A DNA stretch of 64,000 nucleotides. Origin: a virus (Duplodnaviria; Caudoviricetes). Below are positions 25,670 through 43,502 of this stretch, piece after piece. Made by a program: the position numbers and the translations under genes. The notes beneath the pieces are model-generated. The model saw nothing but the letters and a program-made list of their open reading frames with translations. It was not told the DNA's origin and ran no database searches. Location: positions 23,201 to 87,200 of IMG/VR virus record IMGVR_UViG_3300025875_000590; one strand, written 5' to 3'. Numbering within the stretch: position 1 is the stretch's first letter; each line of letters begins with the position of its first letter.

Positions 25670-25720
25670 CGCGCCAGCGGTAACTGCGCGTTAGCGCCTA
25701 GCTTGCTCCGCACCACAAGC
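25670..25720 (+). promoter_or_regulatory. Candidate oriT
   Basis: Non-coding gap upstream of mobC; TAAC/GTTA inverted repeat 5' of TAGCTTG^C, MOBP-like. Confidence 0.4.
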
Positions 25721-25817
25721 CCCAGACGGGGCAGGGCGGCCGGTGGGGACCCGTGGACCCGGGCGGTGGGCGAGGCCGGGAGCGGGAGGCTGGCGGGGCG
25801 GGTGACCCCGGACAGCA

Positions 25818-25851
25818 CGAGGCCCCCAGCCGCGGTGCGGTGGGGGCCTCG
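25818..25851. terminator. GAGGCCCCC-type hairpin 1
   Basis: CGAGGCCCCC/GGGGGCCTCG stem. Confidence 0.7.
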
Positions 25852-25864
25852 AGGCGGGAGCGGG

Positions 25865-26110
25865 TCAGGCGGCGTAGACGGCCCAGCCGTGGGCGGTGCG
25901 GACCCAGGTGACGGTGATGCCGGTGCCGCGGGCGGCCCGGTCGACGGCGTTGGCGACGCGGGTGGCGAGGTGCTCGGGGCCCTCGACGCGGGCCTCACCG
26001 TAGGAGATGAGGTCCTCGCGGATGGCGCGGGCGAGGTCGCTGGTGAGCAGGGCCGGGTGGGCGGCGAGGCGGTGGGCGGCGAGGCGGTGGGCGGTGGGGG
26101 CGGGGGGCAT
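25865..26110 (-). CDS. Small hypothetical protein (cassette gene)
   Basis: Between operator 26141 and hairpin 25818. Confidence 0.65.
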   Translation of the reverse strand: MPPAPTAHRLAAHRLAAHPALLTSDLARAIREDLISYGEARVEGPEHLATRVANAVDRAARGTGITVTWVRTAHGWAVYAA

Positions 26111-26140
26111 GGCGGTAGCTGACCATCCCCGCCGGGGAGT

Positions 26141-26156
26141 TGTCCAGTCCTAGACA
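26141..26156. promoter_or_regulatory. Palindromic operator
   Basis: TGTCCAGTCCTAGACA. Confidence 0.8.
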
Positions 26157-26168
26157 GGCGACACGCAG

Positions 26169-26198
26169 GAGGCCCCCACCCGATCGGGTGGGGGCCTC
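26169..26198. terminator. GAGGCCCCC-type hairpin 2
   Basis: Perfect 30-bp palindrome. Confidence 0.75.
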
Positions 26199-26210
26199 GA
26201 GGCCGGGCGC

Positions 26211-26387
26211 TCAGTTGCAGCCGAGGGCCGGGTCCTGGTCGGGGGCGTAGAGCGGGACGACGTGCTCGGTGAGGTCGTCGGCGTTGCGGATCTCGTAGCC
26301 GGGCATGCCGGGGCGGACGACGACGGCGGCGCCGCAGCAGCCGCAGGCCCAGACGTCGGCCGGGTCGGTGGGGAGGACGGCGCGCAT
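26211..26387 (-). CDS. 58-aa hypothetical protein
   Basis: Hand translation MRAVLPTDPADVWACGCCG...; high GC3. Confidence 0.55.
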   Translation of the reverse strand: MRAVLPTDPADVWACGCCGAAVVVRPGMPGYEIRNADDLTEHVVPLYAPDQDPALGCN

Positions 26388-26545
26388 CACGAGCGGGTGA
26401 TGCCGCGGGAGCGCAGCTCGGCCTCGATGCGCCGGTTGTCGGCGAGGACGGCGGCCCGGAGGCGGGGCAGGCGGGGGATGAAGATCGACGGGGTGTAGGC
26501 GTCCATCAGGGCCCGGTCGGTCATGCGGGTGAGGTCGGTGCGCAC
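26387..26545 (-). CDS. 52-aa hypothetical protein
   Basis: GTG 8 nt after GAGGAG of the start-associated motif. Confidence 0.6.
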   Translation of the reverse strand: MRTDLTRMTDRALMDAYTPSIFIPRLPRLRAAVLADNRRIEAELRSRGITRS

Positions 26546-26552
26546 GGGGGAG

Positions 26553-26565
26553 GCTCCTCAGCTGG
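26553..26565 (-). promoter_or_regulatory. Start-associated motif
   Basis: Exact CCAGCTGAGGAGC. Confidence 0.8.
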
Positions 26566-26589
26566 TCGGGCGAGTCGGGGTGGGGTGGG

Positions 26590-26748
26590 TCAGCGGCGGG
26601 GCAGGTGGGCGGTGCGGTCGGCGACGATGCCGTTGGCCATCGCGCGGGCGAGGCGGTCGACCAGGGGGTCGGCGGCGATGCGGCGGAGCTCGCCGGTGGT
26701 CATGCCGCGGAGGGCGGCGCGGGAGAGGGGGCGGTCGCTGGCGGGCAT
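26590..26748 (-). CDS. 52-aa hypothetical protein
   Basis: ATG 30 nt from operator 26778. Confidence 0.5.
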   Translation of the reverse strand: MPASDRPLSRAALRGMTTGELRRIAADPLVDRLARAMANGIVADRTAHLPRR

Positions 26749-26777
26749 GGAGGTAGTACGCCATAGCCCCGCACCGT

Positions 26778-26793
26778 TGTCCAGCACTAGACA
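26778..26793. promoter_or_regulatory. Palindromic operator
   Basis: TGTCCAGCACTAGACA. Confidence 0.8.
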
Positions 26794-26817
26794 CGCCGGG
26801 CGCTCCCCCGCATGAGG

Positions 26818-26849
26818 GAGGCCCCCGCCGCGGGAGCGACGGGGGCCTC
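26818..26849. terminator. GAGGCCCCC-type hairpin 3
   Basis: GAGGCCCCCG/CGGGGGCCTC stem. Confidence 0.7.
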
Positions 26850-26864
26850 GAGGGGGGAGCAGGG

Positions 26865-27149
26865 TCAGGCGCCGACCTTCGGCGGCGGCACGGGCCGGGA
26901 GGTGAGAGGGCCGGCGGCCTGGTTGTCGGTGTCGACCTTCGCGTCGGCGTCCCAGGTGTGCAGGGTGAGGTCGGCCTCCGGGGGGGCGTAGCCCTCGGAG
27001 ACGACCTCGTCGCCGTAGCGGAGCTGGATGCGGGACTCCTCGCGGTGGACGGAGAGCCGGCGGCGGTCGATGGCCTCGGCGACGGCGCGGCCGGTGTGGT
27101 CCTGGACGCCGTAGAGGATCCGGTCCGGCTTGTAGGCGGGCTCGGTCAT
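26865..27149 (-). CDS. Hypothetical protein
   Basis: 94 aa ORF, GGAGG RBS. Confidence 0.65.
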   Translation of the reverse strand: MTEPAYKPDRILYGVQDHTGRAVAEAIDRRRLSVHREESRIQLRYGDEVVSEGYAPPEADLTLHTWDADAKVDTDNQAAGPLTSRPVPPPKVGA

Positions 27150-27358
27150 GGGGTGCCTCCGGGGGTGGGGGTGGAGTCAACGGGGCCGTTTGCGCCGTTG
27201 GGGTCGTTGGGGTCGCGGGGATGCTGCCAGCAGCGGTCGCCCTCGTGGGCGACCTTCCGGTTGCACACCCACATGGCGCCCAGCTCGAGGTGGCCACCGC
27301 GGCGGCGGGTGGCCTCGAAGTTGCCGTAGCGGGCCGGCGCACCGCAGATGGGCTTCAC
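27146..27358 (-). CDS. Small Cys/His zinc-binding protein
   Basis: CGA..C...RCWQH pattern. Confidence 0.55.
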   Translation of the reverse strand: MKPICGAPARYGNFEATRRRGGHLELGAMWVCNRKVAHEGDRCWQHPRDPNDPNGANGPVDSTPTPGGTP

Positions 27359-27786
27359 GGTCGGGCGGCCCGGATGTCGAGGTCGAGCGCGAACTGCTCC
27401 ACGGCTGCAGCGTCGCCGTCGGTGATCGGCCCGGCGGGGCCGCAGAGGATGACGCCGCCGAGGCGGGCGGCAACCTCCTCGGGGGACAGCACGCGGTTGG
27501 GGTCCTCGGCCGCCGCGCGGGAGCGGGCCGCCGCCGCCGCGGCCCGCTCCTCCTCCAGCTGGACGAGCCGGGCGGCTGCGTGGCGGAGGTCGGTGCCGGG
27601 GGGCAGCCGGTCGAGGCGGGCCAGGAGCTGGTCGACCTCGGTCTCGGTGAGCTGGCTGCCGCTGGTGATGTGGCGGCCGACGGCGTCGCTGTAGAGGCGG
27701 AGGCGGTCGGCGCGGCGGTTGTGGTCGATGCCGCGGGCGGCGAAGGCGAGCACGAGGGCCCTGAGCTTGCCGTCCGGGACGCTCAC
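27355..27786 (-). CDS. Hypothetical protein
   Basis: RLRLYSDAVGRHITSGSQLTETE helical motif; overlap-coupled. Confidence 0.6.
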   Translation of the reverse strand: MSVPDGKLRALVLAFAARGIDHNRRADRLRLYSDAVGRHITSGSQLTETEVDQLLARLDRLPPGTDLRHAAARLVQLEEERAAAAAARSRAAAEDPNRVLSPEEVAARLGGVILCGPAGPITDGDAAAVEQFALDLDIRAARP

Positions 27787-28910
27787 GGCTGGACCTCGCG
27801 CCACTGGTGGGAGACCGACGACCGGGTGTGCTCGCGGGTCAGAAGGTCGCCGGGGCGGACGGCGGCGCGTGCCTCGGCTTCGTCTGAGGTGAGGCACCAG
27901 GTGGTGCCGTCGGGGGCGGCGACGCGCCACCACCGGCCGGGCTGCCAGTCGGTGATGGCCTGGTCGCCGCCGAGCATGGCCAGCAGCTCGTCGGCTTCCG
28001 TCAGCCAGTGCCCGCGCGATCCCGGCGTCCCGGCGTCCCACTGGGCGTCCGTGAACCCGTCGCGCCGCCATAGCCATCGCGCCACGTCGTCGCGGTTCGC
28101 CGTCCCCGACACCAGCTCGGGTAGTGGTTCGACCTCCGGCGGTGCGCTGGCCGGGTCGTCGGCCCACGTCCGGTAGCTCTTGGCCGTCCGGTCGGCGAGC
28201 AGTGCGGCACGAGGCTCGCCCTCCCGTTCCAGCTCCTCGGCGAGCATGGCGAGCGCACCGGCCTGACCCAGGTGGATGAGGCGGTCCGTCCCCGACACCA
28301 GCGGCCGGGCAGTGATGCGGTACCCGGCGGCGTTGAGCTGCTGCACAACTCCCCACGCCGCGCCGCCAGCGTCGTGCCCTTCGATGGGCGAGATTGACGC
28401 GGACAGTGCAGGAGCCAGAGCGTCGGCCTGCCAGATACCGTCGTCCTCCCCGGTACGGACAGCGGGCGGGGTGGCGGGGACGTTCCGGCCGTCGGTCAGA
28501 TGGTGGTAGGCGGCCTGGTGCATCGGCCCGAAGACGCAGCTCGCGCCCCCGTCGGTGAACCCGCAGGGACCGTGCTCCATCGACGGGGTCTTGTGCACGG
28601 CGTCGATGGCATGGCCGCAGACCGGGCAGGGATCCCCGACACGGACAGCGGGCGAGGTGGCGAGCAGCTTGGCCTCGTGGATCGGGCAGAAGTAGTCCGG
28701 CCGCTGCTCGGGCGGGCAGTCGCACGGCTCCACGGTGTCCTCCGGCGACGGGACGGCGGACTGGTACTTGGTGCATCCGTCGTCCGTCTTGCACTCGCCG
28801 CCCCCGTGGCGAGGCCAGTAGTGCTGGCCGAGCGTGTGGCCACAGCCGGGCGTTGCGCACGTCTCCGCCCCTGCGCCGGGGCTGCCCGCGTCGGCCGGGG
28901 TGGCGGTCAT
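27783..28910 (-). CDS. Mosaic multi-zinc-finger phage protein
   Basis: 375 aa; CGH..H, CDC..CPIH, CPVCGH motifs. Confidence 0.6.
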   Translation of the reverse strand: MTATPADAGSPGAGAETCATPGCGHTLGQHYWPRHGGGECKTDDGCTKYQSAVPSPEDTVEPCDCPPEQRPDYFCPIHEAKLLATSPAVRVGDPCPVCGHAIDAVHKTPSMEHGPCGFTDGGASCVFGPMHQAAYHHLTDGRNVPATPPAVRTGEDDGIWQADALAPALSASISPIEGHDAGGAAWGVVQQLNAAGYRITARPLVSGTDRLIHLGQAGALAMLAEELEREGEPRAALLADRTAKSYRTWADDPASAPPEVEPLPELVSGTANRDDVARWLWRRDGFTDAQWDAGTPGSRGHWLTEADELLAMLGGDQAITDWQPGRWWRVAAPDGTTWCLTSDEAEARAAVRPGDLLTREHTRSSVSHQWREVQP

Positions 28911-29278
28911 GACTGCTCCGCGTCGAAGAACACGGCGGGGGCGCCGGTGAGGCCGGTCTCGTCGCGCTCCCACGCGCGGCGGCCCTCTTCGCCGTCCGGC
29001 CGCCAGTGGCCCCACTCGGTGCGCTCGTTGGTCAGCTCCCACGGGAACGCGCCGTCGTACCGCTGCAGGGCGGCCTCGGCGAGCTGGCGGGCGGTCTCGA
29101 GGGAGTGGGTGCGCATGACGCAGACGCCGTCCACGGCCTCGTCGGCGTCGCTCAGGAGCATGGCCTCGGGGAGCTTCCGTGGCCGGTACAGGCGGCCGTC
29201 GGGGCGGTGGACGGGCGTGGGCCGCCGCGGCGGCTCGGGGAACGCGGCTGCCTGCGCTCCGGCGTCGACGGCGGTCAC
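28907..29278 (-). CDS. Hypothetical protein
   Basis: 123 aa, overlap-coupled. Confidence 0.65.
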   Translation of the reverse strand: MTAVDAGAQAAAFPEPPRRPTPVHRPDGRLYRPRKLPEAMLLSDADEAVDGVCVMRTHSLETARQLAEAALQRYDGAFPWELTNERTEWGHWRPDGEEGRRAWERDETGLTGAPAVFFDAEQS

Positions 29279-29601
29279 TGCTGGCCGCCGGTGGGGGGCG
29301 GGGTGACGATGACGTCGCCGGGACCCCAGGTCATGCGGTCGGCCTGCCCGGCCTCGGCCTCGGCCTCGGCCGCGTCGCGGGCGGCGGTGTCGAGGGCGCG
29401 GGCGTCGTGGTCGACCAGGGCGAGGCCGCCGGTGAGCAGGGTGCGCAGCTCGTCGTGGGTGCCCTCGATGAGGACGACGTCGCCGATGGTGAGGCCGACG
29501 TGGTCGGCGGCCAGGGGCGCCTCGCCGTCGGCGAGGTCGTCGCCGCGGAGGATGGCGGGGGCGACGGTGCTGGCGGTGACGCGCTCGATGTGGGTGCTCA
29601 T
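29275..29601 (-). CDS. Hypothetical protein
   Basis: 108 aa from ATG 29601. Confidence 0.6.
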   Translation of the reverse strand: MSTHIERVTASTVAPAILRGDDLADGEAPLAADHVGLTIGDVVLIEGTHDELRTLLTGGLALVDHDARALDTAARDAAEAEAEAGQADRMTWGPGDVIVTPPPTGGQQ

Positions 29602-29927
29602 CAGGACTCCAGGGTGGTGGGGTGGTCGTCGGCGGGGTCGCTGGCGGGAACGGGGGCCGTGCGCTCGAGGTGGGCCTCGGCGCGGTCGGTGGCGGCGCGC
29701 AGGGCGTCGCCGAGCAGCTCGCCGAGGGGGTCGGCGCGGACGGCGGCGATCAGCGCGCGGAGGGCGTCGCGGTCGCCCTGGCCGCGGACGTCGGCCTGGC
29801 CGATGGCGTAGGCGAGGGACTCGAGCAGCAGCCGGCGGCGGATGAGCGAGGCCGGGTCGCCGGGCGGGGGGAAGCCGGCGGCGATGAGGGCCTTGCGGGC
29901 GGCCCGCCGGTGGTCGTCGGTGGTCAC
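29601..29927 (-). CDS. Hypothetical protein
   Basis: 108 aa, overlap-coupled. Confidence 0.6.
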   Translation of the reverse strand: MTTDDHRRAARKALIAAGFPPPGDPASLIRRRLLLESLAYAIGQADVRGQGDRDALRALIAAVRADPLGELLGDALRAATDRAEAHLERTAPVPASDPADDHPTTLES

Positions 29928-30253
29928 TGGACGGCGTCGAGCTCGTCGGCCTGGCGGTCCCAGGCGGCGGCGGAGGCGAGCAGCAGGTCGTAGCGGGGGG
30001 TGCCGCGGTCGAGGCAGTCGGCCTCCTCACGGTCGATCTGGGCGGAGCGGCGGGCACCGTCGGCGTCGTCGCCGACGTAGGGGTCGCGGTGGTCGGCGTG
30101 GTCGGGGGCCAGCCGGACGGCGAGGTCGACGTCGAGCTGCCGCTGCTGCCGGATCTCGGCGAGGCGGTGGACGACGACGGGGTCGCTCTCGCCGCGGCGG
30201 CCAGCGGCGAGAGCGCGCCGGGCGAGGTCGTCGCGGTCAGGGAAGTCGGTCAT
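29924..30253 (-). CDS. Hypothetical protein
   Basis: Start-associated motif upstream. Confidence 0.65.
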   Translation of the reverse strand: MTDFPDRDDLARRALAAGRRGESDPVVVHRLAEIRQQRQLDVDLAVRLAPDHADHRDPYVGDDADGARRSAQIDREEADCLDRGTPRYDLLLASAAAWDRQADELDAVQ

Positions 30254-30262
30254 GGTGGGTCA

Positions 30263-30275
30263 GCTCCTCAGCTGG
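30263..30275 (-). promoter_or_regulatory. Start-associated motif
   Basis: Exact CCAGCTGAGGAGC. Confidence 0.8.
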
Positions 30276-30289
30276 TCAGCGGGTCGGGG

Positions 30290-30385
30290 TCAGCGGGGGG
30301 TGTGGATGGGCAGGTCGTGCTCGGCGCAGGAGACGCCGTCGCCGCCGGGGAGGGTGGACACGGTCCGGCCGCACCAGCAGGTCAC
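30290..30385 (-). CDS. 31-aa CxC..CxxH microprotein
   Basis: VTCWCGRTVSTLPGGDGVSCAEHDLPIHTPR; GTGA overlap with HTH gene. Confidence 0.4.
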   Translation of the reverse strand: MTCWCGRTVSTLPGGDGVSCAEHDLPIHTPR

Positions 30386-30660
30386 GGCTGGCCCGCGGCG
30401 GCGGTGAGCCGCTCGAGGGTGGCCTGTTCCTCGGCGAGCTGCTCGGCGTCGATGGGCTCGCGGATGGCGTCGTAGACGGTCTGGCGGGCGACGCGGGCGG
30501 TGGCGGTGATCTGGGAGCGGCTGTTGCCGCCCTCGCGGTCGGCGACGCGGATCGCGGCGCGCAGCCGGGCGATGACCTCGCGGCGCCGGTCCTCGATCTC
30601 GGCGAGCTCGCCGCCGGTCTCGGCCAGCGCCTTCATGGCGGGGGAGGGGGTGGTGGACAT
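30382..30660 (-). CDS. Small HTH protein, candidate repressor of the operator regulon
   Basis: SRSQITATARVARQTVYDAI helix-turn-helix; best operator overlaps its own -35. Confidence 0.7.
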   Translation of the reverse strand: MSTTPSPAMKALAETGGELAEIEDRRREVIARLRAAIRVADREGGNSRSQITATARVARQTVYDAIREPIDAEQLAEEQATLERLTAAAGQP

Positions 30661-30667
30661 GCCCGCG

Positions 30668-30707
30668 ACGCTACTCCTAGACACCCATCTCTGTCCAGCT
30701 CTGGACA
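30668..30707 (-). promoter_or_regulatory. Leaderless promoter overlapped by operator
   Basis: TGGACA-18-TAGCGT-7-ATG; operator TGTCCAGCTCTGGACA 30692-30707, half-site CTAGACA 30677-30683. Confidence 0.8.
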
Positions 30708-30800
30708 GCTGTGCGGGGCTCCGTCCATCGGAGGGGGGACAGCACAGCGCCCCGCCCCCCGGAAGCCGGGGACGAGGCGCTGGTGGCGCGGGCGAGCGGG

Positions 30801-31211
30801 TCAGTCGGTGGCACCGAGCAGCAGGTCGATGATGCGGCGGTTGGCGAGCAGCTTCTCCACGCCTGCCTTCCGCTCGGCGAGGGCTTCGACCAGGCGGCCG
30901 GTGGCGGACTCGACCAGCGAGCCGTCCTCCTGGTAGCCGCCAGCGAGGTTGGCGATGACGCGCCCGGCGTAGCCCTTGACCTCGGTGGCCCGCTCCCCGG
31001 CGGCGCGGTCGGCCTCGAGGACGGCCCAGGTGGCGGTGGTCTCCGCGGCCATGAGCATGAGCCCGAGCTTCCCGGCGTTGCGGAGCGCGACGCCCTGCTC
31101 GTCGGTGAGGGTGGCGAAGCTGGGCAGGATGCGGGTCAGGGACTCGGCGTCCCGCTGGGACAGCTCGAGCGCGCCGACGGTGTGGCGGGGGGCGTTCGCG
31201 GTGGTGGGCAC
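30801..31211 (-). CDS. Hypothetical helical protein
   Basis: Start-associated motif upstream. Confidence 0.65.
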   Translation of the reverse strand: MPTTANAPRHTVGALELSQRDAESLTRILPSFATLTDEQGVALRNAGKLGLMLMAAETTATWAVLEADRAAGERATEVKGYAGRVIANLAGGYQEDGSLVESATGRLVEALAERKAGVEKLLANRRIIDLLLGATD

Positions 31212-31218
31212 GGTAGGA

Positions 31219-31231
31219 GCTCCTCAGCTGG
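31219..31231 (-). promoter_or_regulatory. Start-associated motif
   Basis: Exact CCAGCTGAGGAGC. Confidence 0.8.
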
Positions 31232-31255
31232 GTGGGTGGGGCTGTCACCGCCGCG

Positions 31256-31284
31256 GGCCCCGCACCCGAGGTGGGTGCGGGGCC
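31256..31284. terminator. Hairpin terminator
   Basis: 12-bp perfect stem GGCCCCGCACCC. Confidence 0.65.
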
Positions 31285-31304
31285 AGGCGGAGCAGGCGGG
31301 GCGG

Positions 31305-31553
31305 TCAGGCCAGGGCGAGGGTCTGACCCTTCTTCCCGTAGACGGTGCCGGTGGTGCGCTTCTCCCGGCCCTTGACGGTGACGGCGATCGTCCCGTTGAG
31401 GTAGGCCCGGGCCGGGGGGCGGCCGTAGGTGGTGGTGATCGTCCGGCCGTTGACGGTGGTGGCCTTGCCGGAGGCGAAGGCGGCGTTGATGCGCTCGGCG
31501 ATGTCCTCGTTGCCGCCGGCGGCGACGGTGATGGTGGTGGCGGTGCGGGCCAT
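31305..31553 (-). CDS. Small basic hypothetical protein
   Basis: 82 aa, start-associated motif and operator upstream. Confidence 0.7.
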   Translation of the reverse strand: MARTATTITVAAGGNEDIAERINAAFASGKATTVNGRTITTTYGRPPARAYLNGTIAVTVKGREKRTTGTVYGKKGQTLALA

Positions 31554-31557
31554 GTCA

Positions 31558-31570
31558 GCTCCTCAGCTGG
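31558..31570 (-). promoter_or_regulatory. Start-associated motif
   Basis: Exact CCAGCTGAGGAGC. Confidence 0.8.
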
Positions 31571-31625
31571 TGGGGTGCGGGGCCGGTCGGCCGCGCAGGA
31601 GTAGGAGACCATCCCTCGCACGCGT

Positions 31626-31641
31626 TGTCCAGTGCTAGACA
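31626..31641. promoter_or_regulatory. Palindromic operator
   Basis: TGTCCAGTGCTAGACA. Confidence 0.8.
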
Positions 31642-31660
31642 CGCGACGCGCGGGAGGGGG

Positions 31661-31804
31661 TCAGACGGTGGCGAGCTCGGCGGCGACGTCGTCGGCGCGG
31701 ACGTCGCCGTAGGTCTCGACGGCGTCGAGCAGGGCCTCGCGGTCGGCGACGGGGAGAGCGGCGAGCAGGGCCTCGATGCGGGCGAGAGCGGCGGTGGCGT
31801 CCAT
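31661..31804 (-). CDS. 47-aa acidic hypothetical protein
   Basis: MDATAALARIEALLAALPVADREALLDAVETYGD...; high GC3. Confidence 0.5.
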   Translation of the reverse strand: MDATAALARIEALLAALPVADREALLDAVETYGDVRADDVAAELATV

Positions 31805-31874
31805 GACCCTGTGTTCGGCTCGTGCAGACCGGAGCTGAAGGCCGGCGTTCGCGGCTCCCCCCTTCAGGGGGGGG

Positions 31875-32978
31875 TCAGGCGGCGATGGCCGCGGCGAGCC
31901 CGAGGTGCTCGAGGACCTCGTCGGGGGCGGCGTCGAGCAGCAGCCCGAGGACGGCGGCGGTGGCGTGCAGCGGGACGACGCCGTTGCCGAGCATCTTGAT
32001 CGCGTCCTCCCCGGATACGGCCCACCGATCGGCGGGGGCGTCGAACAGGTCGAGCTGGTCGACCACTGCCGGCACGCGGGTGACCCACCCGGCGGGCAGG
32101 CCCATCATCCACTCGGTGAAGGCGGGGTTCAGTCCTCGTCCGCCGCGGGCTCGTCGCTCCAGAGGCTGAGGGGCTCGTCGGCCGGTGATGTGCTCCCAGC
32201 GGGCGACGGCGTCGGCGTAGACGCCCCAGTCGACGTCAGCGCCCCCAGCAGGGTCGGGTTGCCCCGCGGGTAGGACAGCGAGGTCCGCTCGGCGTCCGAG
32301 CGCATCGGGGTAGGCAGCAGGTGCAGCGCCGTCGTCAGGTCGTGGCCGCCGGAGCCGGGCCGGGTCATCCGCGCGTAGTCCGGGCCGGAGTGGGCCAGCT
32401 TCGCCTCCGGGGTCGGCAGGAGCCGGCCAGGCGGTGATGAACACGCGGGCGCGGCCGTGGGGGGCGCCGACGGCGGAAGCGGGTACGAGACGCCACGCCG
32501 CATCGTACCCGAGGTCGGCCAGGTCGCCGAGAACAGCTCCGAGGGCCCGGAGGACGACGGAATCCGCCAGGTCCGGCTCGTCGGGTCCCAGATCGCGGTG
32601 GGCTCGGGCACTGAGCAGTCCTCTCACGTTCTCGATGACGACCAGCGCGGGGCGCAGCTGGGCGATGGCGTAGGCGAAGTGGGTCCAGAGACCGGAGCGG
32701 GAGTCGGGGTGGATGCCGAGCCGGCGCCCGGCGAGGGACACGTCCTGGCAGGGGAAGCCGCCGAGCAGGACGTCGACGGGCTCGACCTCGGACCAGTCGA
32801 TGCGGGCGACGTCGCCGAGGTTGGGGACGTCGGGGAAGCGGTGGGCGAGGACGCGGCAGGCGGCGGGCTCGACCTCGGCGTGCCAGGCGGTGCGGGCGCC
32901 GGGGATGGCCGCGGTGACGCCGAGGTCCAGGCCGCCGTAGCCGGAGAACAGCGACCCGACGGTGAGGGCAGGGGCCAC
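31875..32978 (-). CDS. C5 cytosine DNA methyltransferase
   Basis: Motifs I FSGYGG, IV GFPCQD, VI ENV, VIII RARVF, X LGNGVVP. Confidence 0.95.
   Translation of the reverse strand: MAPALTVGSLFSGYGGLDLGVTAAIPGARTAWHAEVEPAACRVLAHRFPDVPNLGDVARIDWSEVEPVDVLLGGFPCQDVSLAGRRLGIHPDSRSGLWTHFAYAIAQLRPALVVIENVRGLLSARAHRDLGPDEPDLADSVVLRALGAVLGDLADLGYDAAWRLVPASAVGAPHGRARVFITAWPAPADPGGEAGPLRPGLRADDPARLRRPRPDDGAAPAAYPDALGRRADLAVLPAGQPDPAGGADVDWGVYADAVARWEHITGRRAPQPLERRARGGRGLNPAFTEWMMGLPAGWVTRVPAVVDQLDLFDAPADRWAVSGEDAIKMLGNGVVPLHATAAVLGLLLDAAPDEVLEHLGLAAAIAA
32129..32611 (-). CDS. Nested out-of-frame ORF (LLPTP repeats) inside the methyltransferase gene
   Basis: 160 aa in +1 frame; GC3 higher than host frame; TWPTSG and two LLPTP motifs. 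Confidence 0.6.
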   Translation of the reverse strand: MPEPTAIWDPTSRTWRIPSSSGPSELFSATWPTSGTMRRGVSYPLPPSAPPTAAPACSSPPGRLLPTPEAKLAHSGPDYARMTRPGSGGHDLTTALHLLPTPMRSDAERTSLSYPRGNPTLLGALTSTGASTPTPSPAGSTSPADEPLSLWSDEPAADED

Positions 32979-33026
32979 GGTGGCGCTCCAGACGGGTGAG
33001 AGGGGCGGGGTCAGTGTCGGGGACGG

Positions 33027-36750: not shown

Positions 36751-36753
36751 GGG

Positions 36754-37170
36754 TCACTTCCCCTTCACGTAGGCCGGCCAGCCGCGGCCACCGTCCCCGC
36801 TGGTCATGAGCCACCGGGACAGGGACTCCTCGGGGTGGCCGGCGTGACGCAGGTCGAGCAGCCACCGTCCCCACGCGTCGGGTTCCCCGTACACGTCGGC
36901 GACCAGCGGCGTGTTGAACAGCAGCGCCTCGGCGAGCCACTGCCCGGTGTCGGCGGCGGCGCGGGCCCACCCGACGGGGTCCGAGTTCTCTTCCGGGGTG
37001 TCCACCCAGGTGAGCCGCGCGGAGACGCCGCGGGGGCTCTTGGTGCGGGCGGAGAGGATGAGCCCGGGGAGCTCGCCGACGTCGCGGTCCAGGCGGAGCT
37101 TCACGGTGTCCCCGTCGACGGCCCGGACGACGGTGAGCACGGTCCAGGTGGCGACGGGCGGCAATGACAC
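36754..37170 (-). CDS. Thermonuclease (SNase)-like protein
   Basis: VRAVDGDTV, RLTWVDTPE, DAWGRWL; TACCGT 7 nt before GTG (leaderless). Confidence 0.75.
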   Translation of the reverse strand: MSLPPVATWTVLTVVRAVDGDTVKLRLDRDVGELPGLILSARTKSPRGVSARLTWVDTPEENSDPVGWARAAADTGQWLAEALLFNTPLVADVYGEPDAWGRWLLDLRHAGHPEESLSRWLMTSGDGGRGWPAYVKGK

Positions 37171-37267
37171 GCGACTGACGGTATCGGCACGACCACGGCG
37201 CGTGGGGGAGGCTGAGCGTTGCCGCTGGCCACGGGCCGGGCACCCCACCGCGCACCTGGAGCATCCC

Positions 37268-38179
37268 GTGGCTGACCGCCAGCTTCCTCTCCCCGAAGTC
37301 GTCCGGCCCGATCGGCGGCTCGGCCGGCACGTCCGGCACGACCCCCGCTCGATGCGGTACCTCGTCCACCCGCGCGGCGCTGAGCCGGTCACCCCGCGCA
37401 CGGTGTTCCACCCGCGCCGGATCCCGCTGCTCGACCAGGGCAACCTCGGGTCGTGCACCTGCAGCAGCGCGGCCGGGGTGCTGGGCTCGGCCGGGTTCTA
37501 CGAGACCCTGTCCGCCGAGCTGCAGCGCACCCTGTCCGATCCGCTGACCGCGCAGGCGTGGGCGGAGGACCTGTACCGGGAGGTGACCCGCGTCGACCCG
37601 TTCGAGGGCGCGTGGGAACCGGAGGACACCGGCAGCGATGGCCTGACGGTGGCGAAGGTGCTCACCGGCCGCGGCCTGATCGCCGGGTACGAGCACGTCA
37701 CCAGCCTCACCGCCGCGCACGCCGCGATCCAGCGCGGGTCGTTCTTCGTCGGCACGATGTGGTGGTCCGGGATGGAGGCGCCGAACAGTCAGGGCATCGT
37801 CACCGCGACCGGCCGCCCGCTGGGCGGGCACCAGTACCAGTGCTTCGGGTACGAGCTCGAGCGGGACCTGTGGTGGTTCTGGCAGACGTGGGGTCGCCCG
37901 TTCGGGGTGGAGCCGCCGGAGCCGGTCATCGCTGCAGCGGTGGCGGGGGCGGGGGCGTTCGCCATGAAGTCCGCGACCTTCGGGCGGCTGCTGCAGCAGC
38001 AGGGCGACGCCACCCTCTTCGTGCCGAACACCGCCCCAGCGCCGACCCCGGCCCCCGAGCCCGCGCCGGGCGGCTTCCCGGTGGACACGGTCGGGCCGTG
38101 GCTGGCCGGCCGGCACTACACGAAGCGGGAACGGCGGGCCGCCGACGCGGTCGCGGGCTGGATGGGGCAGCAGCCCTAG
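37268..38179 (+). CDS. Papain-like (C1) cysteine peptidase
   Basis: LDQGNLGSCT, GGHQY..GY, QTWG; GGAG RBS. Confidence 0.8.
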   Translation: MADRQLPLPEVVRPDRRLGRHVRHDPRSMRYLVHPRGAEPVTPRTVFHPRRIPLLDQGNLGSCTCSSAAGVLGSAGFYETLSAELQRTLSDPLTAQAWAEDLYREVTRVDPFEGAWEPEDTGSDGLTVAKVLTGRGLIAGYEHVTSLTAAHAAIQRGSFFVGTMWWSGMEAPNSQGIVTATGRPLGGHQYQCFGYELERDLWWFWQTWGRPFGVEPPEPVIAAAVAGAGAFAMKSATFGRLLQQQGDATLFVPNTAPAPTPAPEPAPGGFPVDTVGPWLAGRHYTKRERRAADAVAGWMGQQP

Positions 38180-38478
38180 CCGGGCGGGCTGGGCCGGTCA
38201 GTGAGACGGCCGGTCCAGCCGAGCGCGGCGAGCCCGGGCCGTTCCCCGCCGGCCTTCCAGCGCAGGAACGCCGGCCAGCCGACGGGGAAGACCTCGGCCC
38301 ACAGGTGCTCGTCGTGGACCTGTCCGGGGAGGCTGAGGTAGGGGGTGATGATGAAGCCGATGCCGCGCTTGGTGCGGGCGAGCGCGGCCTCGGTGTCGGC
38401 GGCTCGGCGGGTCCAGCGGGGGATGACGAAGGTGGGCTGGCTGCGGTCGGGGGTGCCGATCAAGACGGCGTAGGGCAT
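38176..38478 (-). CDS. Hypothetical protein
   Basis: 100 aa. Confidence 0.55.
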   Translation of the reverse strand: MPYAVLIGTPDRSQPTFVIPRWTRRAADTEAALARTKRGIGFIITPYLSLPGQVHDEHLWAEVFPVGWPAFLRWKAGGERPGLAALGWTGRLTDRPSPPG

Positions 38479-38858
38479 CAGCAGGTCTCCAGATCGAACA
38501 GGGGTGCCTGGCCCTCGGCGAGCAGGGCTGCGACCCGGCCGGCGGCGCGGGTCTCGGCGTGGTGGGCGCGGTCGTAGTGCAGGTGGCAGCCCTGGCAGGC
38601 GGCGAACAGGTTGTCGTCGTCGCAGTGCTCGGGGACGTGGTCGCGGTGGGCGGTGGTGAGGACGACGGTCGAGCCGGTCGACCAGGCGGGCTCGGCGTGC
38701 AGGTTGCGGCAGCGTCCGTCGTCGGCGAGGTGCCCGGCTGGCCGGCCGCACTCACCGCGGCACTCGCATCGGCCGTCGGCGCGGACGAAGCGGATGCGGT
38801 GGGAGATGGCCGGCCAGTCGGCGGGGTACCGGTCGCGATTCTCCGGCCGGATGGGCAT
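38478..38858 (-). CDS. HNH-type endonuclease-like protein
   Basis: MPIRPENRDRYPADW, RCEC, LTTAHRDH..NL..CQGCHLHYD. Confidence 0.8.
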   Translation of the reverse strand: MPIRPENRDRYPADWPAISHRIRFVRADGRCECRGECGRPAGHLADDGRCRNLHAEPAWSTGSTVVLTTAHRDHVPEHCDDDNLFAACQGCHLHYDRAHHAETRAAGRVAALLAEGQAPLFDLETC

Positions 38859-39211
38859 CAGATGGCCGCGAGCTCGAGCAGGACGTCGGCGTGGCAGGGC
38901 TGGTCGAGGGGGCACCAGCAGGCGAGGTCACGGCCGGCGAGCTCGGGCAGACCCATGAGGATGACGGCGCGGTCGACGCCGTGGACGGGCTGCGGATCGC
39001 GGCTGGTGAGCCACCGCCGGTAGGCGGCGGTGGCGGTCTCCGGCGTCCACCGCCGCGCGGGCTGGCGGGGCTCGGCCCACGGCGCGAGAGGCAGCACCCC
39101 GCCGACGACGAACGGGTTGCCCCAGCGGCTGGGGCGGCCGACGTAGACGACGCCCTCGGGCATGCGCCAGCCGGCGGTGCGCCGCCGCTGCACCCGGCGA
39201 GGACTGGTCAC
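38858..39211 (-). CDS. DUF4326 family protein
   Basis: YVGRPSRWGNPF, LAGRDLACWCPLDQPCHADVL. Confidence 0.9.
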   Translation of the reverse strand: MTSPRRVQRRRTAGWRMPEGVVYVGRPSRWGNPFVVGGVLPLAPWAEPRQPARRWTPETATAAYRRWLTSRDPQPVHGVDRAVILMGLPELAGRDLACWCPLDQPCHADVLLELAAI

Positions 39212-39732
39212 TGAGACCGGCCGGTGCCAGCGGGGTCCCAGGTGAGCAGGAGGCACCCGAACGGGGGCCGTTCACCTGGGCCGATGCGGGTGCGGCCGGG
39301 GCGCAGGAAGCGGATCCGGCCGGGCAGGAAGCTGCAGGAGAGGGCGCCCCCGGGCTGGTCGCGGTGGGGCTCGACCAGCAGCTGCCACCACTGCTGCTCG
39401 GTGCGGTTGGCGGGGAGCAGCATGACGATGCCGCGGGTGGTCGAGTACTCGGCCCAGGCCTTTTGCACCCACGGCTTGATCCCGGAGAACGGCGGGTTGC
39501 ACCAGACGGACTCTCCGGCCCAGGGCTGGGCGAGCCCGTCGTCGTCCCGGGTGAAGTAGCGGGGGCACTTCGTGTTGGCCGGGGAGGCGGCGACGTCGAG
39601 GGTGAAGTGGTGCTGGCCGTCGAGGAAGCGGAACAGGTCGAGCGGGGTGGCCCGGTCGTCCACCTCGTCGTCGGGGCCGCGGAGCAGCACCTGGGCGGGG
39701 TGGTTGCGGGGGACCATGCCGGACACGCTCAT
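39208..39732 (-). CDS. Phage Dam-type N6-adenine DNA methyltransferase
   Basis: FTLDVAAS, DGLAQPW, VWCNPPFS, MLLPANRTE, GRIRF. Confidence 0.9.
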   Translation of the reverse strand: MSVSGMVPRNHPAQVLLRGPDDEVDDRATPLDLFRFLDGQHHFTLDVAASPANTKCPRYFTRDDDGLAQPWAGESVWCNPPFSGIKPWVQKAWAEYSTTRGIVMLLPANRTEQQWWQLLVEPHRDQPGGALSCSFLPGRIRFLRPGRTRIGPGERPPFGCLLLTWDPAGTGRSQ

Positions 39733-40112
39733 CAGGTCTCGCCCCAGACGACGTCGACCTTGCCGCAGCTCGAGCCGACGCCGGTGTGCTCGTGCTCGTC
39801 GGCCTCGCCGGGCCACGGCGGCAGCTTCCGCACGGTGGCGAAGGGGACGAACCGGCCGCATGTCCCGCAGTGCCAGCGGTAGGGCGGGCGGAGGACGGCG
39901 GGGTGCAGCTCGGGCGGGGGGTCCTGGGGTGGGCCGAACCGGACGTCGGTGAGCGCGGCGGCCTTGGCCGCCTCGGTGAACAGGATGCGGGCGCCGTGGG
40001 TCCAGCCGCCGGGCGGGTTGCCGACCTCGGCGCACGGCGTGCCGGGAGCGGCGCCGCAGCTGGAGCAGGAGAACTCGAGCGCCTGGGCGTGGACGTCGGG
40101 CCGGTCAGCCAC
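39732..40112 (-). CDS. Zinc-finger protein
   Basis: CSSCGAAPGTPC..H..R and CGTC motifs. Confidence 0.65.
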   Translation of the reverse strand: MADRPDVHAQALEFSCSSCGAAPGTPCAEVGNPPGGWTHGARILFTEAAKAAALTDVRFGPPQDPPPELHPAVLRPPYRWHCGTCGRFVPFATVRKLPPWPGEADEHEHTGVGSSCGKVDVVWGET

Positions 40113-40578
40113 GACCCCGGCCCTTCGCGCGGCGGGCGGCCCGGTTCGGGCCAGCGGTGACGGTGCCCGAGGGGACCAGCGGGAACCGGTCCTCGCAGCC
40201 CCGCACCCACCGCTTCCCCTCACGGCGCCAGCGGCACTGCGGCATCGCCTCGGCGCGCTCGCGGGTCATCGGGGACCCGTCGAGCAGGTGCCCGTCGAAG
40301 GCGACCGCGCCCTCGTCGGAGAGGGCGATGAGCCCGCGGCAGTGCGTGCACATGCCGCCGGTGAGCACGCGGGTGGCGAGCGCCTCGAGGGCAGCCACCG
40401 GGTCGGGGTGGTCCTCGACCATGAGCCGGGTGCCCTGGTAGGAGCAGACGGCCCACCAGGTGACCTCGGTCATCGGGGAGGCGTCCTCGCCGGTGTGGCC
40501 GAACTCGAGGTCGCGGGCGCCGGTGCGCCCGATGACGTCGACGGACGCCACGAGGGCGTCCTCGTCCATGCGGATCAT
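40105..40578 (-). CDS. Hypothetical protein
   Basis: 157 aa, CTHC and CRW..GC motifs. Confidence 0.65.
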   Translation of the reverse strand: MIRMDEDALVASVDVIGRTGARDLEFGHTGEDASPMTEVTWWAVCSYQGTRLMVEDHPDPVAALEALATRVLTGGMCTHCRGLIALSDEGAVAFDGHLLDGSPMTRERAEAMPQCRWRREGKRWVRGCEDRFPLVPSGTVTAGPNRAARRAKGRGRG

Positions 40579-40889
40579 CGTGTGGGCTCCTTCGGGGTGG
40601 TGGGCTGGTCGCCGATGTGGCCGGCGAGCAGGTCGGCGCCGCGCAGGACGGCGGTGACCTCCCCGGCGGCGGCTTCGAACGGCACCCGGTCGCGGGCGTA
40701 GGTGCGCTGGCCGCAGACCACCACGCGGTGGGTGCCGTCGATGACCACGGCGTAGGCGTAGCTGATCGGGGCCAGCCGTCGCAGGTTGGCCAGGTCGATC
40801 TGGTTGGCGAAGGCGACAGCGTGCTTGAGGACGGCTGGGTTGCCACCGGAGGCGGTGCGGACGGCGGCCAGGAACTCGGCTCGGGACAG
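40575..40889 (-). CDS. Hypothetical protein, probable CTG start
   Basis: In-frame CTG 9 nt after GAGGAG of start-associated motif; no ATG/GTG/TTG at that distance. Confidence 0.55.
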   Translation of the reverse strand: MSRAEFLAAVRTASGGNPAVLKHAVAFANQIDLANLRRLAPISYAYAVVIDGTHRVVVCGQRTYARDRVPFEAAAGEVTAVLRGADLLAGHIGDQPTTPKEPTR

Positions 40890-40897
40890 GGGGATCA

Positions 40898-40910
40898 GCT
40901 CCTCAGCTGG
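40898..40910 (-). promoter_or_regulatory. Start-associated motif
   Basis: Exact CCAGCTGAGGAGC. Confidence 0.8.
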
Positions 40911-40927
40911 TGGGGGGAACACGGACG

Positions 40928-40966
40928 ACGCTACCGGTAGACACAACCGGTGTCCACCGGTAGACG
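40928..40966 (-). promoter_or_regulatory. Promoter overlapped by operator variant
   Basis: TGGACA-17-TAGCGT; TGTCCACCGGTAGACG 40951-40966 and half-site GTAGACA 40937-40943. Confidence 0.75.
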
Positions 40967-40967
40967 G

Positions 40968-41525
40968 TCAGCGGCTGGTCTCGGCGAGCCGGCGGGCGCG
41001 GGCCGCGCGCCCGGCCGGGGTCGAGGGAGCACCGAGCGGGGTCCGCTCGGGGGTCGGGGCGGTGCGCAGGTGCGTGGTGAACGTGGCGTCGACCTCGGCC
41101 TGCTGCTCGCGGGCGCGGGCGGCGCGCTCGGGCTGCCCGCGCAGCTCGGCCAGCTCGGCGTAGGAGGGGCGGCCAGCGTTCGAGGCGACGGTGGCGGCGA
41201 CGCACTGGAACGCGAGCTGGGCGGCGGCCTCGGCCTCGCGGTCGGCGACGTAGCGGGCGGCGTTGAGCTCGCTCTGCAGGCGGTCGGCGACGGCAGCGGG
41301 GTGGGTGGTGATGCGCCACGCCTCGGCGGCGGCGACGGTGGCGGCGACCTTCGCGGGGTCGTTGTCGGCCAGCGCGAGCCACTCGTCGGAGCCGTACTCG
41401 GGGACGGGCACGTCGCGGGGAGGCAGTCGGCGGGCGGACCACTCGGGGACGGGCCCGGTGTCGGGGGCCAGCACGGGACCCAGGGCGCGACCGCTGCGGC
41501 GGAGACGGCGGCGGAAGTTGGACAC
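40968..41525 (-). CDS. DUF2742-like protein
   Basis: PEYGSDEWLALADNDPAKVAATVAAAEAW; GAGGAG RBS. Confidence 0.7.
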   Translation of the reverse strand: MSNFRRRLRRSGRALGPVLAPDTGPVPEWSARRLPPRDVPVPEYGSDEWLALADNDPAKVAATVAAAEAWRITTHPAAVADRLQSELNAARYVADREAEAAAQLAFQCVAATVASNAGRPSYAELAELRGQPERAARAREQQAEVDATFTTHLRTAPTPERTPLGAPSTPAGRAARARRLAETSR

Positions 41526-41694
41526 GGGCACTCCTCGGGTGGGCGGCGAAGCGTACAGGTCGAGTGTACGGGCATCGGGCGCGGGAGAACATGCCCAAAT
41601 GCATGGGAACCGTCGTGACGGAACGGGGTCTGACCTGGGAGAACAGGCCAGCGACCCGTCCTGTTCATGGTGGGACAGGGGGAGGTGCGGACGG

Positions 41695-42534
41695 TCACCC
41701 GGCGACGACGCGGTACCGGTCCCCGTCGGCGACGACGCGGAGGTCACCGCTGTCGCCGACGAACCGGTTGACCGGGGCCTCGAGCACCGGGTCCTCGACC
41801 GTCGCCGCGGCGGCGGCGAGGTCGGCGAGCATGACCCGGCCGCCGGCGGTGAGGACGTGGATGCGCTGCCCAGCGCGGACGTCCTCGAGGCGGACGGCCC
41901 AGCCGTGGGAGGCGCGGGTGAGGTAGGACAGCGCGCCGCTGGCCTTGCCCTCGGTCCAGCCGGCGACGGCGGCCAGCTCGACCAGGGAGAGCCCGGCGGT
42001 GAGGGTGACGCCGTGGTGGACGACGAGCCCGGCGTCGGCGCGGCGGAGCCACTCGGCGGCCTGCTGGTACACCAGTCCGGTCGGGGGCTCCAGGGGCAGC
42101 GTGGCGGCACCGGCGCCGGGGCGGGAGGCGCCGCGGGCGGGGCGGTCCTTGCCGTCCCCGGACTCGACCTTGGCGGGCTCGTTGTCCAGCAGGCCGGCGC
42201 GGCGCAGTTCGATGATGTCCTCGGCGACGGTGCCGAGGCCGACGCCGAGGCGGCGGGCGATGGTGCGCTGCGAGGCGCCCTTGACGCCGTCCCCGAGGCG
42301 CATGGACAGCACGAGCGCGCGACGCTCCTCCATGGTCAGCCGCAGCTCGGCGAGCAGGTCGCTGAAGCGGGCGAGGGCGTACTCGTGCCAGGCGGTGAAC
42401 CCGGCGGTGATGTGCGCGGAGCCGACGCGCAGCCGCGTCAGGTTGCCGATGCCGGACACGAGGTCGGCGCGGGTGGCCAGCTCGAGGCGCTCGACGTCGG
42501 CGGGGGACAGGACGGGGGCGGTGGTGGCGTTCAT
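41695..42534 (-). CDS. HTH DNA-binding protein (two HTH-like regions)
   Basis: SQRTIARRLGVGLGTVAEDI; LSLVELAAVAGWTEGKASGALSYL. Confidence 0.75.
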   Translation of the reverse strand: MNATTAPVLSPADVERLELATRADLVSGIGNLTRLRVGSAHITAGFTAWHEYALARFSDLLAELRLTMEERRALVLSMRLGDGVKGASQRTIARRLGVGLGTVAEDIIELRRAGLLDNEPAKVESGDGKDRPARGASRPGAGAATLPLEPPTGLVYQQAAEWLRRADAGLVVHHGVTLTAGLSLVELAAVAGWTEGKASGALSYLTRASHGWAVRLEDVRAGQRIHVLTAGGRVMLADLAAAAATVEDPVLEAPVNRFVGDSGDLRVVADGDRYRVVAG

Positions 42535-42538
42535 GGCA

Positions 42539-42551
42539 GCTCCTCAGCTGG
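42539..42551 (-). promoter_or_regulatory. Start-associated motif
   Basis: Exact CCAGCTGAGGAGC. Confidence 0.8.
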
Positions 42552-43002
42552 TGGTGGCGGGCTGGCCGCCGTGGTCGTGGCAGGCCGGGAGACCGGCCAG
42601 GCGGTGCGTGGTGGTGCGGGTGCAGGGCGACCCGTCGCGGCGGGTGCCGGTGCAGGTGGCGGCCGAGCCGGTGAAGGCGGCGGCGAGGTCGGGGTTGCAG
42701 GCGGTGCAGTGGTGGGCGGCCCAGCGGGCGAAGTGACCGTGGGGGCACTTCGGGGCGTACAGCCGGACGAGGCCGGGGCGGACGACGACGACCGGGTTGG
42801 TCGCGGTGGGGGTGAGCAGGTCCTCGTCGGCGATGGTGGGCAGCTCGAGGTCCGAGGGGCGGTCGAGGATCGGCAGGGGGCCGGTCTCGAACAGCCACGC
42901 GGGGACCTCGCGGCGGTGGCCGCGGACGTGGACGACGCGCACGTCCCCGTCCGGGCCGACCAGGTGCCGGTCGTGGGGGGCGACCCGGGTGGCGGCGGTC
43001 AT
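42544..43002 (-). CDS. Zinc-binding hypothetical protein
   Basis: CPHGH..HCTAC and CTGTRRDGSPC..CHDHGG motifs. Confidence 0.65.
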   Translation of the reverse strand: MTAATRVAPHDRHLVGPDGDVRVVHVRGHRREVPAWLFETGPLPILDRPSDLELPTIADEDLLTPTATNPVVVVRPGLVRLYAPKCPHGHFARWAAHHCTACNPDLAAAFTGSAATCTGTRRDGSPCTRTTTHRLAGLPACHDHGGQPATTS

Positions 43003-43394
43003 GCGGCCCCACCGGCGCGGAACAGCGCGATGACCTCGGCGTCGAAGTGGGCGAGCTCGGCCAGGACGGCGGCGAACTCGTCCTCGGTCGGGATCTCCCC
43101 GGCGGCGGCGAGGTCGGCGAGGTCGCCGTTGAGGACGTCGACCAGCGTGGCCAGGAACGGTCGGCCGCCGACGACGCCGGCGGTGCGCGCGGCGAGGGCG
43201 GCGGCGGCGAGGACGTCGACCTGGGTGATGAGCACGAGCAGGCGGGGGGACTCCCACACCTCGTTGGTGGGGTCGGTGTGGACGGTGATGGCGCCGGTGA
43301 CGAGGTCGAGGACGGCGACACCGGCCGGGTGGGCGAGGACGGCGGAGACCTGGGCGGCGTCGAGGACGGGGGCGGCGGTGCGCGTGGTGGGCAT
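42999..43394 (-). CDS. Hypothetical protein
   Basis: 131 aa, overlap-coupled. Confidence 0.6.
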   Translation of the reverse strand: MPTTRTAAPVLDAAQVSAVLAHPAGVAVLDLVTGAITVHTDPTNEVWESPRLLVLITQVDVLAAAALAARTAGVVGGRPFLATLVDVLNGDLADLAAAGEIPTEDEFAAVLAELAHFDAEVIALFRAGGAA

Positions 43395-43502
43395 GACCCA
43401 TGTGACGGCAGGCGGCCCGCGTTCGTACAGTCGAAGTGGACGGTTCTTCACCCGCCGGGGGGAGATCGTCTGGTCACCGGTGCGGAGAGTCGACACGAAC
43501 GG

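Follow-up and report, generated by a model that had tools for sequence, protein, structure and literature searches.

Does the cargo block of a phage that also encodes a conjugation apparatus serve as a leading region in mating, as an early region after injection, or as both? The question is raised by an IMG/VR virus record of 87.2 kb (IMGVR_UViG_3300025875_000590; Duplodnaviria, Caudoviricetes), which is rated 96% complete. Bases 23201-87200 of this record, a stretch of 64,000 nucleotides (nt) with a G+C content of 75%, were analysed and are called the window. Coordinates are those of the window unless they are given as record positions, which refer to the full 87.2-kb record. The element is designated G0, and two related virus records used for comparison are designated G1 and G2. 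Judged by its genes, G0 is a chimera of a tailed temperate phage and a conjugative plasmid with a MOBP relaxase and a type IV secretion system (T4SS), which is a rare kind of element, since genes for terminase, portal, MuF-domain protein, RecT, RusA, lysin, capsid and tails coexist with genes for MobC, relaxase, VirD4, a VirB4-like ATPase, an SCO6880-family protein and ParA.

The block under study covers 43.4-25.9 kb and is found between the MuF gene and a non-coding stretch. We consider the chances somewhat better than even that it is a repressor-controlled, hypervariable entry island at work after either kind of entry, the clearest of its functions being protection through DNA modification.

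The Origin of Transfer

The non-coding stretch extends over 25.6-25.86 kb, with the mob genes on one side and the block on the other, and two short sequences in it, before the mob operon, recur in G1 and G2. Eighty metagenome loci with relaxase homologues were fetched, and in nearly all of them the 10-mer GAGCAAGCTA (gene strand) is found about 130 nt upstream of mobC. When 56 distinct copies were aligned in the plus-strand orientation of the window, the core TAGCTTGCTC (25699-25708, plus strand) was invariant in all 56, the relaxases of these relatives being only about 42-60% identical to that of G0. G0, G1 and G2 each contain the core in one copy and one orientation.

The core is preceded by an inverted repeat (25680-25697, plus strand), which in the family has 8-bp arms and a 3-nt centre; six of the eight pairs are kept in G0. 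The spacing between repeat and core is 2-3 nt in the 56 sequences, and the repeat of G0 stops 8 nt short of the predicted nick. Across the alignment 96.2% of the cells pair, all eight pairs have changed on both sides and 110 cells carry a double change, while pairing in slid controls is 24-43%. These patterns argue that the origin of transfer (oriT) at 25680-25708 is real.

Taking the core and the geometry of the repeat together, the nick is most likely to fall between G25705 and C25706. A preliminary description of this DNA had supposed it to be on the plus strand near 25.7 kb, and the coordinate given there, 25706, is exactly at the G|C of the family-invariant core TAGCTTG|CTC and coincides with the 5' end predicted for the transferred strand. 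The consensus for MOBP nick sites is (C/T)ATCCTG(C/T), cut after the G, with the inverted repeat in a 5'-proximal position as in RP4 (PMC3772185). TAGCTTG|C agrees with YATCCTG|Y at six of eight positions in the forward direction and at five of eight in the reverse reading. The resemblance separates the two strands only weakly, which leaves the position of the repeat as the main argument for polarity. The order of inverted repeat, about 8 nt, and conserved nick core is shared with RP4 and MOBP origins in general, as is a repeat that faces the operon for the accessory protein and the relaxase, and a homologous relaxase has been typed as MOBP. G0 differs in the sequence of the core, in belonging to an actinobacterial family whose T4SS is of the split VirB4 type, and in that its nick is a predicted one.

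A full-text literature search for the oriT motif returned only unrelated papers among the matches listed. The sequence GGTAACTGCGCG (25678-25689) was considered as a MOBQ/RSF1010-like nick site and rejected, since it is kept neither in G1 and G2 nor in the family at large and corresponds to the left arm of the repeat in G0. An exact 14-mer scan of viral contigs was also set aside, as the 80 stretches viewed of at least 118 that matched were chance matches with no relaxase nearby.

The box CGCTGCGCTGGGCTGAG (25605-25621, minus strand) is conserved as well and lies directly before the ribosome-binding site (RBS) of the first mob-operon gene. In most of the metagenome loci a box, CGCTGCGCTGGGC (gene strand), is found about 100 nt beyond the core and just before the RBS of mobC. 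A site for the accessory protein and a leader are both possibilities for the box of G0.

Position of the Block Relative to oriT

As an operational rule, the relaxase gene adjoins oriT on the lagging side, and the leading region is found on the opposite side (PMC11541004). The relaxase and mobC genes of G0 are at coordinates below the oriT core and the block is above it, so the block abuts oriT opposite the relaxase. This layout gives good support to the view that the block occupies the place of a leading region, and the preliminary placing of it on the leading side, opposite the tra genes, agrees with the published definition. The polarity assumed there also agrees with what was found, as the covarying repeat is 8 nt 5' of the nick on the plus strand, in a MOBP-like manner, and it is the repeat that faces the relaxase operon. 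Because the repeat precedes the core when the plus strand is read 5' to 3', and because the relaxase is expected to lag, the block (25.7-43.4 kb) is predicted to be leading and the relaxase lagging. We infer that the relaxase would nick the plus strand at G25705|C25706 and pilot it 5' to 3' into the recipient. The block would then probably be the first part of the element to enter the new cell in mating, from 25.7 towards 43 kb, while the repeat, mobC and the relaxase gene would enter last.

When it comes to gene orientation, the transferred strand (T-strand) is the template for 36 of the about 37 open reading frames (ORFs) of the block. The genes had earlier been said to point towards oriT; this is correct for these 36, but it is not specific to the block, as a gene call based on third-position G+C (GC3) puts 133 of the 135 genes of the record on the minus strand. 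The only block gene on the plus strand encodes a phage-type peptidase of 422 aa (36911-38179; phrog_16701, E 7e-32). The incoming T-strand could not serve as template for this gene, which is kept in G1 and G2, where it is also opposite-stranded.

Gene Content of the Block

The block proper (25865-43394) contains about 37 ORFs, all but the peptidase gene on the minus strand. Fourteen of the 36 called encode fewer than 100 aa, and about two thirds of the ORFs are without a match. The C5 and Dam-type methylases and the nucleases that had been reported from it were all confirmed. The C5 cytosine DNA methylase gene (31875-32978, minus strand; PF00145, E 1e-32) is 6.2-7.3 kb from the predicted nick and displays 75% nucleotide identity to the methylase gene of Gordonia phage Phinally. 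Its Pfam match spans residues 6-183 only. At 32129-32629 the third-position G+C moves to another frame while the methylase frame remains open, and this could reflect a replaced target-recognition segment. The Dam-type N6-adenine methylase is encoded at 39208-39732 (minus strand; PF05869, E 1e-24). A third gene (34462-35180, minus strand) has ParB_N in one frame followed by the C-terminal half of an N6/N4 methylase in another, with a frameshift near 34.85-34.9 kb; as the N-terminal methylase half is also missing, the gene is a decayed ParB-methylase. The block thus holds each of the three DNA methylase genes of the 87-kb genome, and none was found among 75 proteins scanned outside it.

A PADLOC scan of 39 block proteins matched 94 families, and the 25 of these that were viewed all describe methylases and include no model for restriction or any other defence. 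The C5 and Dam-type methylases, which are intact, appear to be orphan enzymes. In leading regions, orphan methylases belong to the functions whose enrichment is most prominent (PMC11541004). The earlier statement that the content fits a leading region is borne out to this extent, but no hallmark establishment gene was detected and methylases are equally typical of phage early regions.

The nucleases are an endonuclease VII domain protein (35183-35812, minus strand; PF02945, E 3e-22) and an HNH endonuclease (38478-38858). The latter forms a pair with a DUF4326 gene (38478-39193 for the pair, minus strand), as in mycobacteriophages, and the likeness to these extends to the nucleotide level. Genes for a DUF1353 protein and a phage zinc-finger protein are also present, and the PHROG matches of the block are to methylases, nucleases, ParB-like proteins and proteins of unknown function. 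Two intact orphan methylases, a decayed third, endonuclease VII and HNH would point to protection and processing of the incoming genome.

The upstream end of the block (40968-43394, minus strand) encodes a DUF2742 protein, a helix-turn-helix (HTH) protein (41695-42534) and two unknown proteins, and three of these four are homologous in G1 and G2. At the other end the block is closed by a terminator-like, G+C-rich hairpin (25818-25851, minus strand). A 28-nt sequence of this hairpin is 93-96% identical in G0, G1 and G2 (G2 39774-39800; G1 43519-43545, reverse complement) despite different flanking genes. Similar hairpins recur within the block at 26.1 and 26.8 kb.

Operators and Promoters

The operator-controlled, hypervariable part of the block (25865-40966, minus strand) is made up of six hairpin-operator-promoter cassettes with about 32 ORFs. 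In gene orientation the operator is a 16-bp palindrome of the form TGTCYAG-N2-CTGGACA, and each copy is preceded by a G+C-rich hairpin. The six operators are found exactly where the preliminary description had them, at 26141-26156, 26778-26793, 30692-30707, 31626-31641, 34069-34084 and 40951-40966. Their number is far beyond chance, as 0.46 matches are expected and none of 100 shuffles attained the observed count. The first operator has its TGGACA half-site about 30 nt before the ATG of an 81-aa ORF (25865-26110). The third is a perfect palindrome with TGGACA-N18-TAGCGT, and the sixth is a variant, CGTCTAC..GTGGACA, with TAGCGT 17 nt on.

The TGGACA half-site doubles as a -35 element, so that the operators overlie promoters. 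TGGACA followed after 17 or 18 nt by TAGCGT is seen at two block sites, and TAGCGT serves as -10 at three of the operator sites of the record. For three of the six block operators TGGACA is 29-33 nt ahead of the start codon and leaderless messages are expected; for the other three it precedes a common leader with a strong RBS. The promoters are of the ordinary double-strand -35/-10 type. A generic sigma-70 promoter scan with the Escherichia coli consensus gave no sites in this DNA of 75% G+C.

The operators had been said to lie only in the block. This is true of the window, but the full record has two more. A seventh, with one mismatch, is at record 3764-3779, where TGGACA-N17-TAGCGT-N7-ATG heads a string of small genes with RusA, and a degenerate eighth is ahead of RecT at record 8522-8537. 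Since the same operator/promoter design is found at RusA and RecT, it marks an element-wide early regulon and not a leading region. The design predicts derepression in any repressor-free cell, at any genome position and after either route of entry. What remains of the operators as an argument for a leading region is the derepression itself, which had been foreseen for a recipient without repressor but which holds for any route or position.

With six promoters in the block and at least one elsewhere under this control, the block genes would be silent in the resident plasmid-prophage. They would be switched on in a cell without repressor as soon as the DNA has become double-stranded, whether it has arrived by mating or by injection. 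As second-strand synthesis must come first, this would not be the F-like mechanism with single-strand promoters.

The HTH protein (41695-42534) and the ORF at 40575-40922 are candidates for the repressor. An XRE-type gene (20823-21620) is more likely to control the T4SS operon than the operator regulon, because in G0 as in G2 it is transcribed divergently from the former. In G1 and G2 the palindrome is a different one, CGTACAC-N5-GTGTACG, located both within and beyond the block. In the form CGTACA-N7-TGTACG it recurs at G2 21649, 33960, 60251, 79694 and 86195 and at G1 20303, 25423 and 37556 (reverse-complement coordinates), which suggests that elements built on a common chassis differ in immunity specificity.

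Variability of the Block

G0, G1 and G2 share a backbone of terminase/portal/MuF, mobC/relaxase, T4SS and capsid/tail genes, as seen in a protein-by-protein comparison, and the order of terminase and relaxase is the same in all. Nearly all virion and conjugation genes are common, while homologues in G1 or G2 were found for only eight of the 36 genes called in the block. The shared ones are mostly at the far end of the block (40.9-43 kb), together with the peptidase, the DUF1353 gene and one gene for a 143-aa protein. The equivalent blocks of G1 and G2 are 26-28 kb and encode ParB_N (three), a TET-associated glycosyltransferase (TAGT), a QueF-like protein, RlaP nucleotidyltransferases, a methylase, an HNH endonuclease and MarR regulators. 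In each of the three hybrids the place next to oriT on the leading side is thus taken by a variable block rich in genes for DNA modification. Together with the glycosyltransferase and QueF-like genes of the relatives, the cargo of G0 would point to a role in protecting and processing the incoming genome. The small unique ORFs are candidates for further counter-defence roles.

Alternative Explanations

Several observations weigh against the reading of the block as an entry island. Nicking, polarity and expression are all predicted from sequence alone, and as co-orientation is genome-wide the argument from gene orientation carries no weight. Two other regions, the small genes before the terminase and those after the tails, are about equally variable. 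Operators exist outside the block, and in G2 the equivalent palindromes are scattered across the genome. Scans of all block proteins against Pfam, PHROG and PADLOC gave no homologue of ssb, psiB, ardA/B/C, klcA, acr or toxin-antitoxin genes, and no usable match came from a protein-atlas search with the largest two of the unknown proteins, of 375 and 215 aa. In the plasmid relatives the leading side holds parA/parB, DUF4192 and hypothetical genes, and about 65% of its coding bases, by a crude gene call, point to oriT. No single-strand promoter of the Frpo/ssi kind is evident; the oriT-proximal fold of the T-strand consists of the repeat and the terminator only, and there is no actinobacterial model to compare it with. 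As the promoters need double-stranded DNA, entering first gives little head start.

The block may thus be a plain early or accessory region of the phage, like the right arm of actinophages, which came to lie by oriT through the accident of a plasmid-phage fusion. We regard this as possible, though on the doubtful side. The named block genes do resemble those of Gordonia and Mycobacterium phages, as seen from the Phinally methylase, the HNH/DUF4326 pair and the PHROG matches, and DUF4326 is found upstream of the terminase in ordinary actinobacterial prophages. The RusA/RecT region is under the same operator/promoter design, the promoters are of the double-strand type, and apart from one HNH match no block gene is found within 10 kb on the leading side of oriT in the plasmid relatives. 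Against a mere accident, each of the three hybrids has a variable block immediately beside oriT on its leading side, and that of G0 contains all three methylase genes of the genome. Nothing so far sets the block apart from the ordinary repressor-controlled early region of a phage; such a region is, however, compatible with an entry island, the only difference being whether the position matters. A reversed transfer, with the nick on the minus strand, or a relic conjugation module would make the block lagging or irrelevant. Nicking and polarity being predictions, the close scores of the two readings against the MOBP consensus would allow this, and the symmetric repeat could be a binding site for the accessory protein. 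Yet a minus-strand reading puts the repeat 3' of the core, against the MOBP layout, and would make the relaxase lead, against the usual rule. The relaxase retains all invariant catalytic residues, the T4SS genes, which are intact, share 43-58% identity with their homologues on plasmids, and the core is intact in 10 of 10 positions, so we find this explanation improbable. Least probable is that the block is cargo of benefit to the host, such as restriction-modification or another defence, and not counter-defence. The methylases do adjoin nucleases, but these are enzymes of the endonuclease VII kind and of the HNH kind known from phages, the PADLOC families viewed were methylase models only, and the repressor would silence the genes in the resident state.

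Organization of the Element

The transcription order in the window is from high to low coordinates. It starts with many small genes at 64-55 kb, followed by genes for the large terminase (53320-54900), the portal (48038-49630) and a MuF-domain protein of 976 aa (44764-47694), and then by the block. Downstream of the non-coding stretch are a small ORF, MobC, five small ORFs, the PF03432 relaxase and an M23 peptidase. The gene for an SCO6880-family protein comes next, then those for a VirB4-like ATPase and the VirD4 coupling protein, ahead of ParA. The capsid and tail genes follow ParA and extend beyond the window into the rest of the record, where the lysin, RecT (record 7184-8377) and RusA (record 575-1039) are also encoded.

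The mob operon opens with a small Cys-rich ORF (25467-25592, minus strand), and homologous small ORFs are found before mobC in G1 and G2. A non-coding gap of 414 bp was for this reason rejected, as the conserved small ORF precedes mobC. The MobC/NikA-like relaxosome accessory protein (25058-25450, minus strand; PF05713, E 4e-6) has homologues adjoining the relaxase in 59 metagenome loci. The MOBP-type relaxase (22310-23845, minus strand; PF03432), on the predicted lagging side, keeps the invariant Tyr17 and the motif H124...N131-D-H133-x-H135. In G0 five small ORFs separate mobC and the relaxase gene (23842-25061), while mobC abuts the relaxase gene in the plasmid relatives; G1 and G2 also have inserts at this place, as well as extra genes between oriT and mobC. 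The T4SS operon (11424-19326) is convergent with the relaxase gene in G2 and the plasmid relatives. In G0 the whole operon is flipped and thus co-directional with the phage genes.

The relaxase family is large and actinobacterial, with 1473 matches, many of them labelled Arthrobacter, Modestobacter and similar genera, and 363 plasmid records. The nearest relative of the G0 relaxase is 92% identical and encoded on a 64.6-kb contig. Plasmid 2 of Arthrobacter sp. FB24 carries a homologue and is typed by MOB-suite as MOBP, MPF_T and conjugative. No relative of the relaxase was found among solved structures by sequence. A viral-contig search with the single relaxase protein gave no match, and one with an alignment of relaxases found only G1 (50.2 kb, cut at the relaxase gene) and G2 (94.6 kb), whose relaxases are 57-59% and terminases 69-71% identical to those of G0. 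Terminase relatives in sequenced genomes share the terminase alone and were discarded as uninformative on whether a cluster of head genes had received the block together with mob and tra by insertion.

Genes from opposite ends of the record (window 63.4-64 kb and record 1-1.1 kb) adjoin in G2, at 89-90.3 kb, and the record is therefore circularly permuted. This would mean that the molecule is circular, or the record a permuted copy, which fits a circular plasmid or headful-packaged DNA. A direct junction test for circularity gave no usable information.

Relation to Known Systems and Significance

The closest comparison is with the leading-region anti-defence islands of conjugative elements (Samuel et al., 2024, PMC11541004) and with the leading regions of F and ColIb-P9. 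Like these, the block of G0 abuts oriT opposite the relaxase, uses the transferred strand as template for its genes, and has orphan methylases, many small uncharacterised genes and a variable content. It differs in having no match to ssb, psiB, ard, klcA, acr or toxin-antitoxin genes. No promoter of the Frpo/ssi type was seen in it either, the promoters being repressor-controlled double-strand ones. Furthermore, G0 is also a tailed phage, and its strand bias is genome-wide.

The early regions of temperate actinophages are under repressor-operator control; in phiC31, for instance, conserved inverted repeats are found at the early promoters. G0 similarly repeats one palindromic operator at its promoters, each after a terminator hairpin, and its block consists of small early genes with functions in DNA metabolism. 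Unlike an early arm, the block is not contiguous with other early genes but is placed between the head-morphogenesis genes and the conjugation module, and the repressor of G0 is known at the level of candidates. A third comparison is the transcriptional overshoot of a repressed plasmid backbone in a naive host, which for R388 is plasmid-wide and experimentally demonstrated. The repressor-held genes of G0 are likewise predicted to burst on in a recipient without repressor, but for G0 the burst is only a prediction.

Phage-plasmids and conjugative plasmids are usually viewed as alternative transmission strategies (PMC12282955), and 'conjugative phage-plasmids' are mentioned only in passing, in one 2026 preprint. 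The present analysis gives a concrete oriT, the repeat followed by TAGCTTG|CTC, for a relaxase family that is widespread on plasmids of Arthrobacter, Rhodococcus, Streptomyces and related genera, and this definition could aid the prediction of mobility and leading regions in actinobacterial plasmids. It is a tentative idea, and one we would not expect to hold in full, that G0, G1 and G2 belong to a lineage of actinobacterial 'conjugative phages' in which one silenced, hypervariable island is the leading region in mating as well as the early region after injection. If both routes are used, the entry island lends itself to asking which of them, mating or infection or the two together, the counter-defence genes are positioned to serve. 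If the idea is true, the island would be a module for establishment and counter-defence on both routes, and its about 25 unique small proteins would include new anti-defence factors.

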